A stretch of DNA of 64,000 nucleotides, taken from NCBI GenBank assembly GCA_016188355.1, contig JACPHY010000011.1:23219-87218 (forward strand), in the 5' to 3' direction. This document shows, piece after piece, positions 50,331 through 57,816 of the stretch (positions are counted from its first letter, which is position 1; every line of letters starts with the position of its first letter). Below the pieces are notes generated by a model that had not been told where the DNA came from, did no database searches, and saw nothing but the letters and a program-made list of their open reading frames with translations. The DNA comes from Candidatus Uhrbacteria bacterium. GTDB taxonomy: Bacteria; Patescibacteriota; Patescibacteriia; JACPHY01. The position numbers and the translations under genes are program-made.

Positions 50331-50435
50331 TTGTCCCATCCCCGGATGGGACTTCCCACGCCGCGATCTCCAAGTGAGGCCGCTGCGTGGGAGGAGTGGT
50401 TCTTTCACCAGAGCAGGAAAAAGGAGGTATCGGTC
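50331..50435 (+). promoter_or_regulatory. conserved leader L2 upstream of the AAA+ gene
   Basis: TTGTCCCATCCCCGGATGGGACTTCCCACGCCGCGATCTC...GCCGCTGCGTGGGAGGAGTGGTTCTTTCACC...AAGGAGG..ATG. Palindrome TCCCATCC-CC-GGATGGGA plus a second hairpin. Confidence 0.6.
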
Positions 50436-53174
50436 ATGGAATGGCTGATGCAATTTGACGCGCTTCGGGCGCGGGGACAGCACGCGTTTCTGTTTGTGGG
50501 GAGCGCGGGAGACGGATTCCCGCGGTCGCCTGCGGATGCCGCAAGTCCGGTCGACGCGCTCGATCCATGGGCGGAAACAATGGCTCACCACCTCGCGGGC
50601 ACGCAGGCGCTGGTAGTGACGTTCGATGTGGCAAGGGGACTGACGTTCCGTTCTCCCGAGGATGAGCAGGCATTCCATGTGGGTGCGTGTGGCGATGCGC
50701 CATCGCCGTCGCCACAGAATGCCGTTGCGCGTGCACGGGCAACGCGGCCGACCGCGTGGCCGTGGGAACCGGCGGAGGCGCTCGATTGCTTGCGTCTTGC
50801 CTGCACGCGATTCGCGACTGCCACGGGGAATGCGCGACGCTCCTTGGCAATCATCCTTCCCGACGTGGATGCCATGGTGCCGGATGCCGCCACCATGGCA
50901 ACTCCGAGTTCGGCGGTGCCATTGACCTTGCTGCGACTCCTGGAATCTGACGCATTCCGTCGGTGCGGACACTGCTTCCTCATGAGTGCGCCGACCACGC
51001 GATCCGTGGATGAGCGATTGCGTCGTCCCGACGCACCGATCGCGGTGATTGCGGTGAGCCGCCCGACGGAGCAGGAGCGGGACGCGTTCATTGCGTCGTC
51101 GTGTGCGACCGAATTGACCGATCTCCAGCGTGAGCGTGCGATCGCCGCACAGGCGCTTGCCGAAGCACGGAGCCAGGTGGTGGCGAAGGCTGAGGTCGAC
51201 CGAGCACAAGCAGCTGCAGCGATGCGCGATCATGCGGCACGCGAAGCGGCGCTCGTGGAGCATGATGCGGAGTACCAGCGTCTCGAGCGGATATATCAGG
51301 AGTTGGCCGCGCAGCAACAGCGTGCGCGTGACCAGGCCTCGACGGATCGGCGGCAGCGTGAGCATGCGCTCGTGCAGGAGCATGATGTGCTGGTGAAGCG
51401 CTTCCTATTGGATGCCGCGCTTGCGATTGTCCCGATGACGGACGACCGATGGTCGGCGATGGAGGTGGGTGACGCGTTGCAGATCACCGTGCGGAATGGG
51501 TCGGGTCAGGAGGAGGTGATCGTCAAGCACGTGCTCGAACGGAAAGGCGATGGGTGCGTCCTCTCGCGGAGCAATGATCCGCATGCCCCACACGTGCATC
51601 ATTGCGACCAACATCCGGGCGAACATCATCCGAAGGATCATCTCCAGCCCATGCTCTTTTTCTGGAAGTGCGGCATGGTGCATGGACGTCGGCTGCATGC
51701 GACCAAGGACCCGGAGCCGATGCCGATCCCGGAGGGATCTTCGTGGACGGTCATGTACGTGCCTCGCGAGCGTTTCGTGGTACAGGCGCGTCTGGCGACG
51801 ATCGAGCAGGAGCGTGAGCGCCTCGAGGTGGAGTCCGAGACGGTGGTGACCCCGATCGATGGGGATGTACCGCGCGCGGCAGCTGCATGTGCGGCACGAC
51901 GCGCCATCGTGCTCGCCGAATGGCAACGCGAAGGCGGGGTGCTCCGTGCGGCGATGCAGGAGGCAGAGGCGTGCATGGCGAATCCGGCGAGTCCGGAGAT
52001 GGATCGCTGCGCTCGGGAACTCCACCGCGCGGAACAGCGGATCACCGCCGCATCGGTGCGCGGCGCATTCGCGCTCCCGGATGGCGGCAGTGCGTCGTGT
52101 GCTCGGCTGATGCAGGGGTTCGGGTATCGCGATATGGTGGCGGTGCTTCGGTCGGCACGCGCGGAGCGGCGTCCGGCAACGGCGGCCGACGTGCTCACGG
52201 CGCGGCAGGCGATCCTCCGTCGGTCGTACGGTGATCTCTTCGAGATCGTCGATCCGGAGTTCGGATTTGCGGAGATCGCGGGCTGCGATCACGTGAAGCG
52301 ACTCTTCGCGCGCATTCGTGATCACATCCGTGCGGGCAATCGATCGCGGGTGCCGATGGGCGTGCAGCTCCTTGGGCCCCCCGGCGTCGGGAAGTCCGCG
52401 ATTGCGATGGCGTTCGCGCGGGAGTGCGGATTCCTCTTCGTGCGGATGAAGAATATTCGTGAGCCGTGGGTGGGGGCGTCGGAGGCGCGGTACGAGCGTG
52501 CGCTGCATGCGCTCCGCGAGCTCGCGCCAGTGGTCTGGTTTCGGGACGAGGTGGATCGTGCGGATGCGGGTCGTGATACGTTCCATGGCGATTCCGGGGT
52601 TTCGCTCCGTATCCAGGAGATGACGATGGAGTTCCTCGCGGATCCCGCAATTCGTGGCCGCGTACTCGCGCTCAGCGCTTCCAACCATCCGGCGCGACTC
52701 GAGGCAGCGCTCGTGCGCGCGGGGCGGACAGACGAGCGGCTCGCGATGCTCTTTCCGGACGAAGCAACGATTGCGGCGCTGCTCCGCATCAAGGTGCGTC
52801 AGCACGGATTCCCCTGCGCGATCGATTCCTTTGCGCCGTACGCGGCATCCATGCGGTGGTGGCCGGGCGGACTCATTGAGAAGGTGGTGCGCGTGGCGTA
52901 CGATTTCGCGGAGGAGCAGGGTCGCGCGGCGATCGACGATGCATCGCTGCGCGCCGCCATCGCGGATACGATCCCGCCGGACGATCACGAACTCGAGTAC
53001 GCGGAGATGACGCGCGCCGCCATCAGTGCGACGAGTAACCAGCGCCATCTTCCGGCAGATGTGGATCAGCAGCTTGCCTGGGCGGAAGCCGTGCTCCGGA
53101 AGCACGGGCGAACCGATACGCATGCGCGGATTCCTGTTCCGGTACGAAGTCCCAGCGGCAGTTTGCCTGCGTGA
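50436..53174 (+). CDS. large protein with C-terminal AAA+ ATPase module (912 aa)
   Basis: Walker A LLGPPGVGKSAIAMAFARE, Walker B VVWFRDEVD, and AAA SRH region (ALSASNHPARLEAALVRAGRTDERL). The N-terminal about 600 aa are an unrecognised, coiled-coil-rich region. Start is the ATG after an AAGGAGG Shine-Dalgarno sequence. Confidence 0.75.
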   Translation: MEWLMQFDALRARGQHAFLFVGSAGDGFPRSPADAASPVDALDPWAETMAHHLAGTQALVVTFDVARGLTFRSPEDEQAFHVGACGDAPSPSPQNAVARARATRPTAWPWEPAEALDCLRLACTRFATATGNARRSLAIILPDVDAMVPDAATMATPSSAVPLTLLRLLESDAFRRCGHCFLMSAPTTRSVDERLRRPDAPIAVIAVSRPTEQERDAFIASSCATELTDLQRERAIAAQALAEARSQVVAKAEVDRAQAAAAMRDHAAREAALVEHDAEYQRLERIYQELAAQQQRARDQASTDRRQREHALVQEHDVLVKRFLLDAALAIVPMTDDRWSAMEVGDALQITVRNGSGQEEVIVKHVLERKGDGCVLSRSNDPHAPHVHHCDQHPGEHHPKDHLQPMLFFWKCGMVHGRRLHATKDPEPMPIPEGSSWTVMYVPRERFVVQARLATIEQERERLEVESETVVTPIDGDVPRAAAACAARRAIVLAEWQREGGVLRAAMQEAEACMANPASPEMDRCARELHRAEQRITAASVRGAFALPDGGSASCARLMQGFGYRDMVAVLRSARAERRPATAADVLTARQAILRRSYGDLFEIVDPEFGFAEIAGCDHVKRLFARIRDHIRAGNRSRVPMGVQLLGPPGVGKSAIAMAFARECGFLFVRMKNIREPWVGASEARYERALHALRELAPVVWFRDEVDRADAGRDTFHGDSGVSLRIQEMTMEFLADPAIRGRVLALSASNHPARLEAALVRAGRTDERLAMLFPDEATIAALLRIKVRQHGFPCAIDSFAPYAASMRWWPGGLIEKVVRVAYDFAEEQGRAAIDDASLRAAIADTIPPDDHELEYAEMTRAAISATSNQRHLPADVDQQLAWAEAVLRKHGRTDTHARIPVPVRSPSGSLPA

Positions 53175-53184
53175 AGTCTGATGT

Positions 53185-53283
53185 CCTGTCCCATCTTCGG
53201 ATGGGACTTCCTACGCCGCGATCTCTGTACGAGGTCGCTGCATAGGAGGAGGGTTCTTTTCATGAATGCGGAAAAAGGTGTCA
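53185..53283 (+). promoter_or_regulatory. conserved leader L3 upstream of paralog 2
   Basis: TGTCCCATCTTCGGATGGGACTTCCTACGCCGCGATCTC...GTCGCTGCATAGGAGGAGGGTTCTTTTC. Compensatory C-G to T-A change in the second hairpin relative to L2/L4. Confidence 0.6.
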
Positions 53284-56651: not shown

Positions 56652-57710
56652 ATGTCGATGTTGGTGCTGGATCCGAAGATCACCCGACTTCCTGCTGTGA
56701 CGCAGACGAATGCATGGTATTCCGTCGTATGGTCCCCATCTGGCGCGTACGTGGCTGGGGTACAGGATATGAAGATCATTTCGTGTTGGCGTGGTGATGG
56801 GTCGCTGCTTTGGACGCAGGACTACTCGCGTGAGAGTGTACAGGATTGTGTATTCGCAGGCGACGACACGCTCTATGTGCGGTCCATCGGTTACTTCAGG
56901 GATGGCACACGTCGCGTGCGTATTCGGAGGTGCATGGTGCCGGATCGGCGTGGCCGCAATGCGATGGTGTGTTCCCGTCCGGTGTCTCGGCTGGGGTCCA
57001 TGGCGGCTACTAGGGATGGCGCCCTCCTTTATGCGGAGTGGTTGGGCAGTGGTCTTTCATGGCATCGGTACTCGCAATCATGCTCCCATCCGCACCAGTC
57101 GGTGATACGGGAGATTGCCTCCTGTGCGGATACGTTGCACTTCTCACGTGATGGGCGTTGGTTGTGGGAGGTGCAGCAGTCGAGCATCCAGGTAACGTGC
57201 ATGGTGACCAATGATACGGCGTGCGTCGCAAATTGTGGTGCTTCCATATTGGCGGTAGACGTTGCAGACGAGAGTCACCGTATTGCGGTGGTGCACCGAA
57301 ATGGACGTATTGCGGTCTTTGCGCATGAGCGAGATCCCCGTAACGGTGTGCTTCGAGTGGTGCGCGACCGTCCGGATCGGCGTTGGTGTCGGTCGATGCG
57401 GCATGCGGCAGTGATTTGGGGACCCGGTGATCATCTCTTCTTGTTGATTGGGCAAGAGCATCGCCTGTTGCTCGTTGACGCGGATGCCCCGGACGAACTT
57501 ACGGTCATGGCGGAAATACCGCAGGTGCGGCAGGTGGCGACGATCTCCCCTGATCCGCACGCGCGTCGGGTGTTCGTGCTCGGCTCGCTCTCCACACCGT
57601 CCGCATCGCGTCGCCGCGAATACGACTATGGTTCCGCGCTCCTCGATTTTGGTTCCCCCTACCTCGGCCTCGTTGCGCCCGTGCACTGGGCGGATGCATC
57701 GTTTGGGTAG
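56652..57710 (+). CDS. WD40-like beta-propeller paralog 5; C-terminus ...LDFGSPYLGLVAPVHWADASFG
   Basis: YSVVWSPSGAYVAG..., ISPDPHARRVFVLG. Confidence 0.7.
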   Translation: MSMLVLDPKITRLPAVTQTNAWYSVVWSPSGAYVAGVQDMKIISCWRGDGSLLWTQDYSRESVQDCVFAGDDTLYVRSIGYFRDGTRRVRIRRCMVPDRRGRNAMVCSRPVSRLGSMAATRDGALLYAEWLGSGLSWHRYSQSCSHPHQSVIREIASCADTLHFSRDGRWLWEVQQSSIQVTCMVTNDTACVANCGASILAVDVADESHRIAVVHRNGRIAVFAHERDPRNGVLRVVRDRPDRRWCRSMRHAAVIWGPGDHLFLLIGQEHRLLLVDADAPDELTVMAEIPQVRQVATISPDPHARRVFVLGSLSTPSASRRREYDYGSALLDFGSPYLGLVAPVHWADASFG

Positions 57711-57714
57711 CGCG

Positions 57715-57816
57715 ATTTGGTCCCATCCCCGGATGGGACTTCCCCCGCGGTGATCTTGCGGAAGATCGTTGCGGGGGAGGAATGTGGTATTGGTTCTTTC
57801 CCAAAGGAGGCGTGTC
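57715..57816 (+). promoter_or_regulatory. conserved leader L6 upstream of paralog 6
   Basis: TTGGTCCCATCCCCGGATGGGACTTCCCCCGCGGTGATCTTGCGGAAGATCGTTGCGGGGGAGGAATG...GGTTCTTTCCCAAAGGAGG..ATG. A-T to C-G covariation in the second hairpin. Confidence 0.6.

Follow-up and report, generated by a model that had tools for sequence, protein, structure and literature searches.

A 64-kb stretch of a Candidatus Uhrbacteria genome (the window) contains an AAA+ ATPase gene and seven WD40/beta-propeller paralogs (P1-P7), most of them preceded by a similar leader of about 100 nt. Does this leader act as DNA, as an operator plus promoter that opens several transcription units, or as RNA, as a structured 5'UTR? 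A preliminary description of the locus had put forward both.

Copies and structure of the leader

We find four near-identical copies, one diverged and one degenerate copy, and a vestigial one at the P6-P7 junction; the six leader copies each fold as a hairpin, H1, followed by an adjacent hairpin, H2. The core GTCCCATCYYCGGATGGGACTTCC occurs on the + strand with at most one mismatch at 50333, 53188, 55408 and 57720, and has no match in shuffled sequences. A covariance model, R1, trained on the four near-identical copies and searched against the 64-kb window, recovers the untrained copy at 49070-49135 (E=7e-10). No further R1 match above 17 bits is found on the sense strand of the 64 kb besides the known copies, and the remaining strong matches are reverse strands of those copies. 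Leader L5 (56551-56632) is too degenerate for R1, yet forms two adjacent hairpins on folding. A Shine-Dalgarno sequence and then a start codon lie downstream of all six. Core search, covariance model and folds bear out the six places first described, as well as the genes served (P1, the AAA+ gene, P2, P4, P5 and P6), and the element is restricted to this gene block within the window, as befits the dedicated signal it was taken to be. Assembly duplication as their source was also considered and fails: Logan assemblies built independently from three sequencing runs match the region at 99.98-100% identity, and there are sequence differences among the copies. The features of the block are as follows.

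47525..47549, + strand: canonical intrinsic terminator, 10-bp stem and TTTTCTCTAT, closing the preceding transcription unit
47564..47592, + strand: promoter-like site for the whole block (TTGACA 47564-47569, 17-nt spacer, TG-n-GAAAGT 47584-47592), read by eye from the sequence and under the scan tool's threshold
47659..49042, + strand: gene calls g1 (47659-48207), g2 (48204-48431) and an NrdG-like radical SAM gene (48428-49042)
49072..49154, + strand: leader L1, radical SAM gene to P1 (H1 49072-49094, H2 49095-49133, GGTTCCTTC 49146-49154)
49183..50295, + strand: WD40/beta-propeller paralog P1
50333..50406, + strand: leader L2, P1 to AAA+ (H1 50333-50352, H2 50354-50392, GGTTCTTTC 50398-50406)
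50436..53174, + strand: AAA+ ATPase gene, 912 aa, with a C-terminal Cdc48-like AAA domain
53188..53260, + strand: leader L3, AAA+ to P2 (H1 53188-53207, H2 53209-53247, GGTTCTTTT 53252-53260)
53262..55398, + strand: WD40 paralogs P2 (53262 or 53283 to 54329) and P3 (54361-55398), with a 31-nt leaderless junction
55408..55479, + strand: leader L4, P3 to P4 (H1 55408-55427, H2 55429-55466, GGTTCTTTC 55471-55479)
55506..56546, + strand: WD40 paralog P4
56553..56632, + strand: degenerate leader L5, P4 to P5 (H1 56553-56575, H2 56576-56610, TGTTCTTTG 56624-56632)
56652..57710, + strand: WD40 paralog P5
57720..57800, + strand: leader L6, P5 to P6 (H1 57720-57739, H2 57741-57778, GGTTCTTTC 57792-57800)
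57817..58818, + strand: WD40 paralog P6
58844..58876, + strand: vestigial seventh leader, reduced to the upper and 3' portion of H2; GGGAGGAA is the P7 Shine-Dalgarno sequence
58879..60003, + strand: WD40 paralog P7, the final gene of the block
60011..60037, + strand: canonical intrinsic terminator, 11-bp stem and TTTTTCATTC, ending the block and overlapping the TTGACC-18-AATACT promoter-like site of the next gene

Both gene callers start P2 at ATG 53262 (predicted protein P0004 begins MNAEKGVMATS), in which case the H2 3' strand of L3 is its Shine-Dalgarno sequence; the P7 start at 58879 follows from its call at 374 aa. P3 and P7 had both been described as leaderless. This holds for the P2-P3 junction, but the P6-P7 junction carries the vestigial copy, 25/33 identical to H2, with an alignment score of 34 that exceeds all 300 shuffles (mean 18.4, sd 3.3, max 32).

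In the window, H1 pairs GUCCCAUC with GAUGGGAC in a stem of 8 bp capped by a YYCG tetraloop (cUUCGg in L3), which preserves the originally described 8+8 palindrome or tight hairpin and corrects its loop. H2, beginning 0-1 nt past H1, is likewise the hairpin first seen as an imperfect stem of 10-12 bp, but measures 15-17 bp with bulges, and 17 contiguous pairs in L6. The compensatory changes reported for this second stem are confirmed: 8 of 16 pairs show double changes over five copies, with 95% of cells paired, versus 0-3 double-change pairs when the pairing is slid. H1 and the base of H2 are fixed, U.G wobbles are kept at two H2 positions, and the top of H2 varies with compensation; the hairpin loops vary, and a conserved unpaired core is lacking. 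At its lower 3' strand H2 reads GGGAGGA, a Shine-Dalgarno-like sequence. Leader L5 has a weak, G.U-rich H1 and an H2 that differs in sequence and keeps the fold; the folding energy of this leader is -23.6 kcal/mol on the + strand vs -13.7 on the - strand. This conserved, covarying sense-strand structure fits the RNA option of a structured 5'UTR. H1 is letter-for-letter identical in the four window copies, where the flanking proteins are ~29% identical, an invariance that purely structural roles leave unexplained.

The module in related Patescibacteria loci

The upstream radical SAM gene belongs to a conserved cluster of g1, g2, radical SAM, AAA+ and WD40 genes that many of the ultra-small Patescibacteria have in common. 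In the window the first three form an overlapping, coupled trio with a Pfam Fer4_12 match, and the trio is conserved in loci L019-L027. We find that the module is the spacer separating the radical SAM gene from the gene that follows it in this cluster, conserved across the lineage, with two adjacent hairpins in 10/10 loci examined from different genera, and that in WD40-array genomes the spacer is reiterated at nearly every array junction; in the two fully sampled ones, L026 and L027, it stands at every leader-length junction.

All 25 junctions in the ten loci carry H1 and H2 separated by 0-2 nt (5 nt in L019), and H1 begins 0-13 nt past the upstream stop codon in 18 of them. H2 consistently measures 13-19 bp, has internal mismatches and abuts H1. 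At every junction the pyrimidine run behind H1 forms its lower 5' strand, opposite a purine-rich lower 3' strand that resembles a Shine-Dalgarno sequence; the lowest 4-5 pairs keep the pyrimidine on the 5' side. Downstream come a GUUCYUUC(A/C) tract, the actual Shine-Dalgarno sequence and the start codon, which lies ~25-45 nt from H2 in most junctions. When the seven L027 copies are aligned without bias by MAFFT, RNAalifold predicts the same two hairpins, with compensatory changes in 8/25 pairs. A model built from L027 only and searched against 97 kb of other loci places 8 of its 9 best matches exactly on system junctions (five in L026, and L023, L021 and L020), and an automated architecture test is positive in 17/19 system junctions versus 9/49 other post-stop regions. 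Sequence alignment across loci does not recover the structure, so that between-locus covariation rests on each sequence's own fold; the folding advantage of the sense strand is a trend (19/25 junctions; G.U pairs 58 vs 30; per-locus p=0.13).

H1 sequences are unrelated between loci, and differ even between the two L025 leaders and between two systems of one genome (L019 vs L026). AT-rich relatives have H1 with a U-run; the tract after H1 in the window, UUCCCAC, has 2-3 U in 8 nt and retains its pairing, and the structure is retained without a U-run in the window, L022 and L025. No Rfam family matches the element.

Could such a repeat lack a dedicated function, being mobile and REP-like, or a by-product of tandem duplication and gene conversion with an ordinary terminator? 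Leaders are 75-86% identical within a locus where paralogs are 23-48% identical, a pattern that concerted evolution could yield, and P2-P5 are also near-identical in the DNA that encodes the conserved C-terminal tail immediately before the leaders. We nevertheless consider this very unlikely. The element has a single orientation, is absent from the rest of the 64 kb and lacks terminal inverted repeats, and an exact-pattern search of 185,579 species genomes and JGI metagenomes gives only chance single matches. Ten loci from different genera carry the same architecture at the same junction, and variation as selective as that in the window is not expected from blanket gene conversion. REP elements, moreover, are dispersed genome-wide and mobilised by RAYT transposases, whereas the module is confined to one operon in the 64-kb search.

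Transcriptional organisation of the block

Six transcription units had been proposed, [P1], [AAA+], [P2-P3], [P4], [P5] and [P6-P7], a division that finds no support here. The only strong hairpin-plus-T-run terminators in 34 kb are 47525-47549, which ranks among the top two terminator-like sites of 28000-61500, and 60011-60037, and they bracket all twelve genes; ordinary terminators of the same genomes lack H2. A scan for a sigma-70-like -35/-10 pair finds none in any leader of the window, L026 or L027. TTGACA-N17 promoter-like sites also lie upstream of g1 in L020, L022, L023, L026 and L027, and in related loci only there. Because terminators and a promoter-like site bracket the block and the leaders are without one, the leaders appear to be internal punctuation of one operon, and we infer from sequence that g1, g2, the radical SAM gene, P1, AAA+ and P2-P7 form a single operon of ~12.5 kb.

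The operator-plus-promoter proposal fares no better. It would make the H1 palindrome the operator of a dimeric regulator, with its own promoter in each leader and six transcription units, which we regard as highly improbable even though four window copies share a perfect, unchanged 8+8 palindrome and H1 of L026 is a perfect 18-bp DNA palindrome. Besides the absence of promoter-like pairs, H2 covariation and conserved U.G wobbles would be meaningless for double-stranded DNA, H1 differs as described between loci and within L025, and at most junctions merely the ~25-45 nt past H2 precede the start codon. In L027, the conserved half-sites GGCGA/TCGCC stand at variable separation with compensatory changes between them, and are therefore incompatible with a fixed dimeric DNA operator.

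Candidate roles of the module

The reading we favour, at about even confidence, takes the leader as RNA punctuation of the operon, a sense-strand module that combines a leaky terminator or protective hairpin with an insulating one. H1 would be a leaky terminator and/or a 3'-end-protecting hairpin for the upstream cistron; termination in the window is probably weak because the U-run has decayed, and with so few U following, H1 may not terminate there at all. In L026 and L027 together, a simple terminator scan flags only 2 of the 12 leaders. H2 would sequester the pyrimidine tail with a decoy Shine-Dalgarno-like strand, and locking the tail in this way would leave the next ribosome-binding site unmasked and give each cistron the same insulated initiation region. 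Energy-model predictions of the unpaired probability of the ribosome-binding-site window, 0.50 in 22 leaders vs 0.37 in 50 control genes (p=7e-4), are consistent with this.

With 15-19 bp stacked on H1, H2 may perhaps also be an RNase III-type processing site. Processing as the main role, with H2 cut so that the operon yields monocistronic messages of equalised stability, H1 left as a protective 3' hairpin upstream and the downstream mRNA given a uniform 5' end, is unlikely. Phage T7 early mRNA is processed comparably at its intercistronic RNase III sites, and the steady length of the mismatched H2 beside H1, the survival of the structure where the U-run is lost and the free, compensated variation of the upper stem all agree with it. 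However, a cleavage site is not identifiable in the sequence, the enzyme would need neither the strict placing of pyrimidines 5' and purines 3' at the H2 base nor the U-richness seen in AT-rich relatives, and by itself H2 falls short of the approximately two helical turns that are usually needed.

A regulated switch for conditional expression of the distal paralogs, rather than passive punctuation, seems rather unlikely. Its alternating pyrimidine and purine segments would be the H2 5' base (1), the H2 3' base (2), the GUUCYUUC tract (3) and the true Shine-Dalgarno sequence (4), with pairing 1:2 and 3:4 masking the site and 2:3 freeing it, as in ermC-type translational attenuation; alternatively, H1 termination would be overridden by a close-following ribosome or a locus-encoded factor. 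A tract resembling the H2 5' strand occurs in 13/25 leaders vs 9/93 other genes, by a regex derived post hoc from the leaders themselves, and several minimum-energy folds pair the tract with the Shine-Dalgarno sequence or with the H2 3' strand, a strand that in L3 and before P7 doubles as the Shine-Dalgarno sequence. H1, invariant in the window, usually lies close enough to the stop codon to be reached by a terminating ribosome. Against this, purine and pyrimidine tracts are trivially complementary, and the switch pairing therefore has little statistical weight; regions past H2 are no more stable than shuffles in 5/6 window leaders, Shine-Dalgarno windows have a higher, not a lower, predicted openness than those of control genes, and the variable loops offer no conserved unpaired core. 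The divergence of H1 within L025 and between L019 and L026 argues against a required sequence-specific factor.

Known systems share parts of this design. In ermC-type leaders, segments 1-2-3-4 alternate before the ribosome-binding site, with the Shine-Dalgarno sequence in segment 4; the module likewise has alternating complementary segments, one of them a decoy partner, and a changed first helix could expose or mask the site, but it lacks a consistent leader peptide (short upstream ORFs in only 2-3 of the six window copies) and its predicted ribosome-binding sites are comparatively open. The put RNAs of phage HK022, which make RNA polymerase terminator-resistant, are also directly adjacent stem-loop pairs of similar total size (~65-70 nt) acting in cis in the nascent transcript. 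They lie just downstream of promoters, twice per phage, and comparison with the module finds no sequence or bulge similarity and no Rfam model match. The malE-malF REP of E. coli and the puf operon hairpins of Rhodobacter are stable hairpins between cistrons of one transcript that shield its upstream part against 3' exonucleases, with differential expression as the result; the module differs in its fixed pair of hairpins, the purine/pyrimidine-asymmetric second stem and the conserved downstream tract.

Clostridia ABC-importer operons carry internal terminator stem-loops after substrate-binding-protein genes, and such intercistronic low-U terminators determine the stoichiometry of the transcripts on either side (PMC9045158). 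As in the module, a GC-rich stem-loop within the operon directly follows the stop codon, its U content is below that of end-of-operon terminators, its U-tract is base-paired, and a fixed upstream/downstream transcript ratio with 3'-end protection is proposed. The Clostridia U-tract pairs 5' of the stem into one longer hairpin, whereas that of the module pairs with a downstream purine strand into a second; the module is also homologous across genera, in one gene cluster and at up to seven junctions, and its function is deduced here, where that of the Clostridia terminators was shown experimentally. Most likely, the module tunes the amount of each protein made rather than providing separate promoters, and the relative amounts of the AAA+ protein and the WD40 paralogs would be set from one promoter.

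The gene block and its transcription layout

The leader, an intergenic element of about 100 nt in which a first hairpin, H1, is followed by a second, H2, lies in a gene block of ~60% G+C that encodes two proteins named g1 and g2, a radical SAM protein, an AAA+ ATPase and seven WD40 paralogs (P1 to P7).

Features of the gene block and of the window around it
47564-47569: TTGACA of the promoter-like site of the block (17-nt spacer, then TG-n-GAAAGT), right after the terminator at 47525-47549
47659-48207, + strand: g1 (gene call)
48204-48431, + strand: g2 (gene call)
48428-49042, + strand: NrdG-like radical SAM gene (Pfam Fer4_12)
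49183-50295, + strand: WD40/beta-propeller paralog P1
50436-53174, + strand: AAA+ ATPase, 912 aa
to 60003 (array end), + strand: paralogs P2 to P7
50220-50295, 54254-54329, 55323-55398, 56471-56546, 57635-57710, 58743-58818, 59928-60003: C-terminal regions of the window paralogs
14591-14665 (- strand), 36975-37046 (+ strand), 38448-38520 (+ strand): tRNA genes, the sole matches to Rfam at gathering score in the window

The end of g1 overlaps g2 by 4 nt, and g2 overlaps the radical SAM gene by the same length. We find that the two strongest hairpin-plus-T-run sites between 28000 and 61500, at 47525-47549 and 60011-60037, sit exactly before g1 and after P7, and that the second is followed by a TTGACC-18-AATACT site for the next gene; no promoter-like or terminator-like site was found in a scan of the window leaders. 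The preliminary description had divided the array into six transcription units, a division that these results do not support, as the two strongest terminator-like sites flank the whole block and the leaders carry no promoter-like site. From the sequence, the block is likely one operon read from one promoter, with internal punctuation in place of six promoters.

The WD40 paralogs share 25-44% pairwise identity (median 29%), and all of those in the window end in ...LDFGxP...HW[AS]DASFG; the DNA encoding this tail is near-identical across P2-P5, synonymous sites included. Ribosome-binding sites in the window are strong (AGGAGG). The preceding transcription unit (43936-47512), directly 3' of the IF-2 gene (41893-43911), has three genes, for a fusion of a J-domain to a Ser/Thr kinase (weak match to Ternary-complex-associated domain 9), a 354-aa protein without a family, and a 400-aa protein with a pyruvate-kinase-barrel-like region.

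Copies of the leader and their fold

The six copies, L1 to L6, precede P1, the AAA+ gene, P2, P4, P5 and P6, respectively, and their repetition is real, with four occurrences of the core GTCCCATCYYCGGATGGGACTTCC on the + strand against a chance expectation of none. A covariance model built from four window copies, R1, finds the copy at 49070 with E=7e-10, and a scan of the 64 kb with this model returns no further sense-strand match above 17 bits. The copy at 56551 is degenerate in sequence and retains the fold, and a seventh, vestigial copy, identical to H2 at 25 of 33 positions, lies at the P6-P7 junction (58844-58876), where its GGGAGGAA is the Shine-Dalgarno sequence of P7. The copies are recovered in independent assemblies from three sequencing runs and are thus not assembly artefacts; Logan contigs of the three runs show no polymorphisms among them and represent one strain.

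Folding of each copy gives H1, a gap of 0-1 nt, and H2. In the window, H1 is an 8-bp stem, GUCCCAUC/GAUGGGAC, closed by a YYCG loop (cUUCGg in L3), and H2 is a stem of 15-17 bp with one or two mismatches. The compensatory changes proposed earlier for H2 are borne out in five model-aligned copies, with both sides changed in 8 of 16 H2 pairs and 95% of H2 cells paired, as compared to only 0-3 doubly changed pairs in slid-control alignments, although this alignment was fitted to R1, which favours the structure. In the same five copies H1 is invariant except for one U-A to U.G change, and two U.G wobbles in H2 are kept in four or five copies. In L4, L5 and L6 the sense strand gives the better fold of the two strands; in the remaining copies the two are roughly equal. 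In four window copies H1 is the same letter for letter, even though identity of the flanking genes falls to ~29%; local gene conversion or a window-specific reader could possibly account for this.

In L3 and at P7 the 3' strand of H2 is itself the Shine-Dalgarno sequence, so that some translational masking by H2 is possible there. An ATG follows this strand by 9-11 nt in L3 (in the P2 frame), L4 and L5, and opens a short upstream ORF in L4 (55481-55508; MTIEQRR, 7 codons, with its TGA 1 nt before the P4 ATG) and in L5 (56636-56654; MTKE, 4 codons, stopping 3 nt before the P5 ATG). The start of these two ORFs 9-11 nt after the Shine-Dalgarno-like strand of H2 is a layout typical of termination-reinitiation coupling. 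A leader-peptide attenuator was rejected, as such an ATG or short ORF is absent from L1, L2 and L6 and is not conserved. Relative to the repeat, the open frame of L2 is not that of L3, and the leader is therefore not coding.

The AAA+ gene and P2 share a frame in which L3 is free of stops (53172-53283), and readthrough of the TGA at 53172 would fuse the two proteins; this pattern is unique to the junction and was judged to be chance. A stimulator of stop-codon readthrough or frameshifting was likewise rejected, since other junctions hold no consistent frame and the stop-to-H1 spacing ranges from 6 to 37 nt.

The gene cluster and its junctions in related loci

Searches with the AAA+ protein and the WD40 paralogs return no close homologues other than self matches, and relatives were found solely via the radical SAM protein, whose homologues number in the hundreds, at roughly 440 loci, share 40-65% identity with it and mostly carry the label Candidatus Uhrbacteria or Patescibacteria. 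Nine related loci (L019-L027) were sampled, and g1, g2, the radical SAM gene and the AAA+ gene are present in all nine. L026 carries four extra WD40 genes 3' of the AAA+ gene, L027 three before and at least three after it, and L019 a single WD40 gene upstream, with the same LDFGSPNFG motif. A related motif, (L/F)DFGxPNxG, near the C-terminus is common to all WD40 paralogs of the window, L026 and L027, followed by a tail that each locus keeps in a form of its own (window, HW[AS]DASFG; L026, ..(E/D)LPV; L027, ..LDEAFV). L019 and L026 are two copies of the system in one Uhrbacteria genome (GCA_026395055.1), with unrelated H1 sequences; L019 has its AAA+ gene split in two (306 + 577 aa) and its WD40 gene upstream as a unit of its own. 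The source of the window is itself labelled Candidatus Uhrbacteria by NCBI and its nearest radical SAM homologues likewise lie in Uhrbacteria/Patescibacteria MAGs, with 44 to 68% G+C in the homologue-bearing loci versus 60% in the window.

The g2 product and its equivalents in L019-L027 form a conserved protein of ~70 aa that has a single invariant Cys and ends in a basic, Gly-rich tail (..KxGGG, ..RVRGGT); its gene always lies between g1 and that of the NrdG-like radical SAM protein. By analogy, the C-terminal tail recalls ubiquitin-like or ThiS-like small proteins, and g2 together with the Cdc48-like AAA+ ATPase and the WD40 proteins could make up a system for protein tagging or unfolding.

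The spacer 3' of the radical SAM gene folds, in each locus, as a pair of adjacent hairpins directly past the stop codon. The five junctions of L026 all have leaders of near-identical sequence, in which GGCGAUCACGUGAUCGCC is followed by CUUUUACACGAAC...GUUCAUGAGAAAG and a U-rich tract, with 99% of cells paired, and all seven of L027 carry GGCGA...UCGCC followed by UCUUUUCUUGAA...UCAAAGAAAGA, with hairpin tops that vary with compensation. RNAalifold on a plain MAFFT alignment of the L027 copies predicts both hairpins, with 8 of 25 pairs compensatory. The two leaders of L025 resemble those of the window in the H2 base and downstream tract (UUCCCACGC...GCAUGGGAGGAUAGUUCCUUCAC in the first, CUCCCACC...GAUGGGAGGAAACGUUCUUUCC in the second). 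Unlike in the window, H1 is not kept letter for letter in L025 and L027. Two leaders contain an extra near-perfect hairpin of 150-170 nt, placed after H2 in spacer 1 of L027 (10686-10858, ~71 bp) and inside H2 in L025 (8200-8350); these look like insertions of an inverted-repeat element.

We find that the two-hairpin design marks the junctions of this system. A covariance model made from L027 copies alone, R2, places 8 of its 9 best matches over 97 kb of the other loci exactly on junctions (five in L026, together with L023, L021 and L020), at individual E-values that are marginal (0.009-0.28); the window model R1 barely detects relatives. An architecture test, requiring a hairpin of at least 7 bp no more than 45 nt from the stop codon and then, within 5 nt, a domain of at least 13 bp, is positive for 17 of 19 system junctions versus 9 of 49 other post-stop regions, and at least two of those nine regions themselves belong to the system. 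Ordinary terminators in these genomes are A-tract/stem/U-tract hairpins without a second hairpin. Cross-locus MAFFT alignment with RNAalifold gives no consensus structure, the sequences being too divergent to align, and covariation between loci therefore rests on the fold of each sequence on its own.

What is constrained across the 25 junctions is the composition of the strands. H1 is a GC-rich stem of 7-14 bp in all 25, and in 18 of them it starts 0-13 nt past the stop codon. In all 25, the lowest 4-5 pairs of H2 place pyrimidines on the 5' side and purines on the 3' side, as U-A, C-G or U.G, never reversed. In AT-rich loci the 5' strand of H2 is a U-run directly after the GC-rich H1, which gives the look of a terminator, with 4-7 U in the 8 nt after H1 in L027 and 6 in L020; L026, L023 and L024 have 4. 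In L022, L025 and the window leaders this strand reads UUCCC and faces a complementary GGGAG, so that pairing is kept and the U-run lost. Downstream of H2, 13 of the 25 leaders carry a GUUCYUUC(A/C)-like tract, as compared to 9 of 93 other genes, a count made with a regular expression derived post hoc from the leaders, in which copies of the same locus are not independent. Sense-over-antisense folding is a trend only across loci (19 of 25 junctions; 58 versus 30 G.U pairs; per-locus p=0.13).

These features do not fit the operator-plus-promoter that had been offered as one reading of the element. No leader of the window, L026 or L027 has a -35/-10 pair at 16-18 nt spacing, the L027 half-sites lie at variable rather than fixed distance with compensatory changes inside, and H1 is unrelated between loci and between both leaders of L025, neither of which resembles the window H1. 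The other reading, a structured regulatory RNA, is supported: the leader is an intercistronic module of the sense strand, conserved in structure and specific to this gene cluster.

Class membership and proposed role of the module

Rfam 15 returns only tRNAs at gathering score from the window and the nine related loci, and no match overlapping a leader even at E<=5. H1 has the GC-rich stem of an intrinsic terminator; the window copies lack the U-run of such a terminator, which would begin 0-2 nt past the stem with 5 or more U in 8 nt, and have only 2-3 U (UUCCCACG). A terminator scan that flags the flanking terminators flags none of the window leaders and 2 of 12 leaders in L026 and L027. The array of L026 ends in a canonical terminator, unlike its leaders, and genes of the same system resume on the same strand ~25-60 nt downstream of the leader hairpins. 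RNase III substrates call for ~20 bp of near-continuous dsRNA, and H2, with 13-19 bp and internal mismatches, exceeds 22 bp only if stacked on H1.

Several known classes were considered and rejected. A riboswitch or other ligand-sensing leader is disfavoured by H1 and H2 loops that vary in sequence and length and by a junction of 0-2 nt with no conserved unpaired core. The loops are not the hexaloops of ANTAR-type two-hairpin targets, being 4-5 nt in the window and L026 and variable elsewhere, and no terminator overlaps H2. REP/BIME or MITE-type repeats do not fit a single orientation with no copy outside the operon in 64 kb, nor conserved ends, CGCGATTTGG and GGTTCTTTC, that repeat one another neither directly nor in inverted orientation. 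Integron attC sites, CRISPR repeats and retron RNA are set aside by the lack of R/L boxes, a repeat spacing of 1-3 kb filled by genes, and the lack of an Rfam match. Attenuator-like pairing of the 3' arm of H1 with the 5' base of H2 is possible in the window and is not conserved in other loci. Searches of 185,579 species genomes and of JGI metagenomes for the exact pattern of H1 plus CTTCC gave 6 and 7 single matches, respectively, all from unrelated taxa; none scores above 28 bits with the window model, which gives true copies 85-89 bits, and they are thus chance matches.

We propose that H1 would serve the upstream cistron as a leaky terminator, as a hairpin protecting its 3' end, or both, and that H2 would pair the pyrimidine tail with a decoy purine strand, so that the real ribosome-binding site stays open and is the same at every cistron. 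In addition, H2 may be a site of the RNase III type. A strong Shine-Dalgarno-sequestering hairpin past H2 was rejected, as 5 of the 6 copies show no more stability in this region than shuffled sequences do, and the predicted state of the ribosome-binding sites is a relatively open one. Over positions -17 to -4, 22 leaders have a predicted unpaired probability of 0.50, as compared to 0.37 for 50 control genes whose spacers are comparably long (p=7e-4), and this greater openness, together with the lack of unusual stability after H2, supports an insulating role. The proposed mechanism also finds support in a precedent from Clostridia, where internal low-U terminators have been found experimentally to fix the stoichiometry of flanking transcripts in ABC-importer operons (PMC9045158).

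A more far-reaching reading, which we consider unlikely, is that the module is a conditional switch between cistrons, of a new class and confined to this Patescibacteria system, read by the trailing ribosome, an RNase or a product of the locus (g1, g2, AAA+ or WD40 proteins). Each boundary would then comprise a terminator-like hairpin followed by pyrimidine, decoy-Shine-Dalgarno, pyrimidine and Shine-Dalgarno segments, the cell would set how far along the paralog array expression runs, and copies within a locus would be near-identical because they co-evolve with a locus-specific reader. We regard the leader instead as an uncatalogued form of intra-operon terminator-like or stabiliser hairpins, with a function that is probably ordinary.

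The leader is a candidate RNA motif family absent from Rfam 15, beyond a curiosity of one genome, and it marks a conserved, uncharacterised CPR (Patescibacteria) gene cluster that combines a Gly-rich-tailed small protein, an NrdG-like radical SAM protein, a Cdc48-like AAA+ ATPase and WD40 arrays with locus-specific tails. If the insulating role holds, the module would be a natural design to standardise the expression of many cistrons from one transcript.
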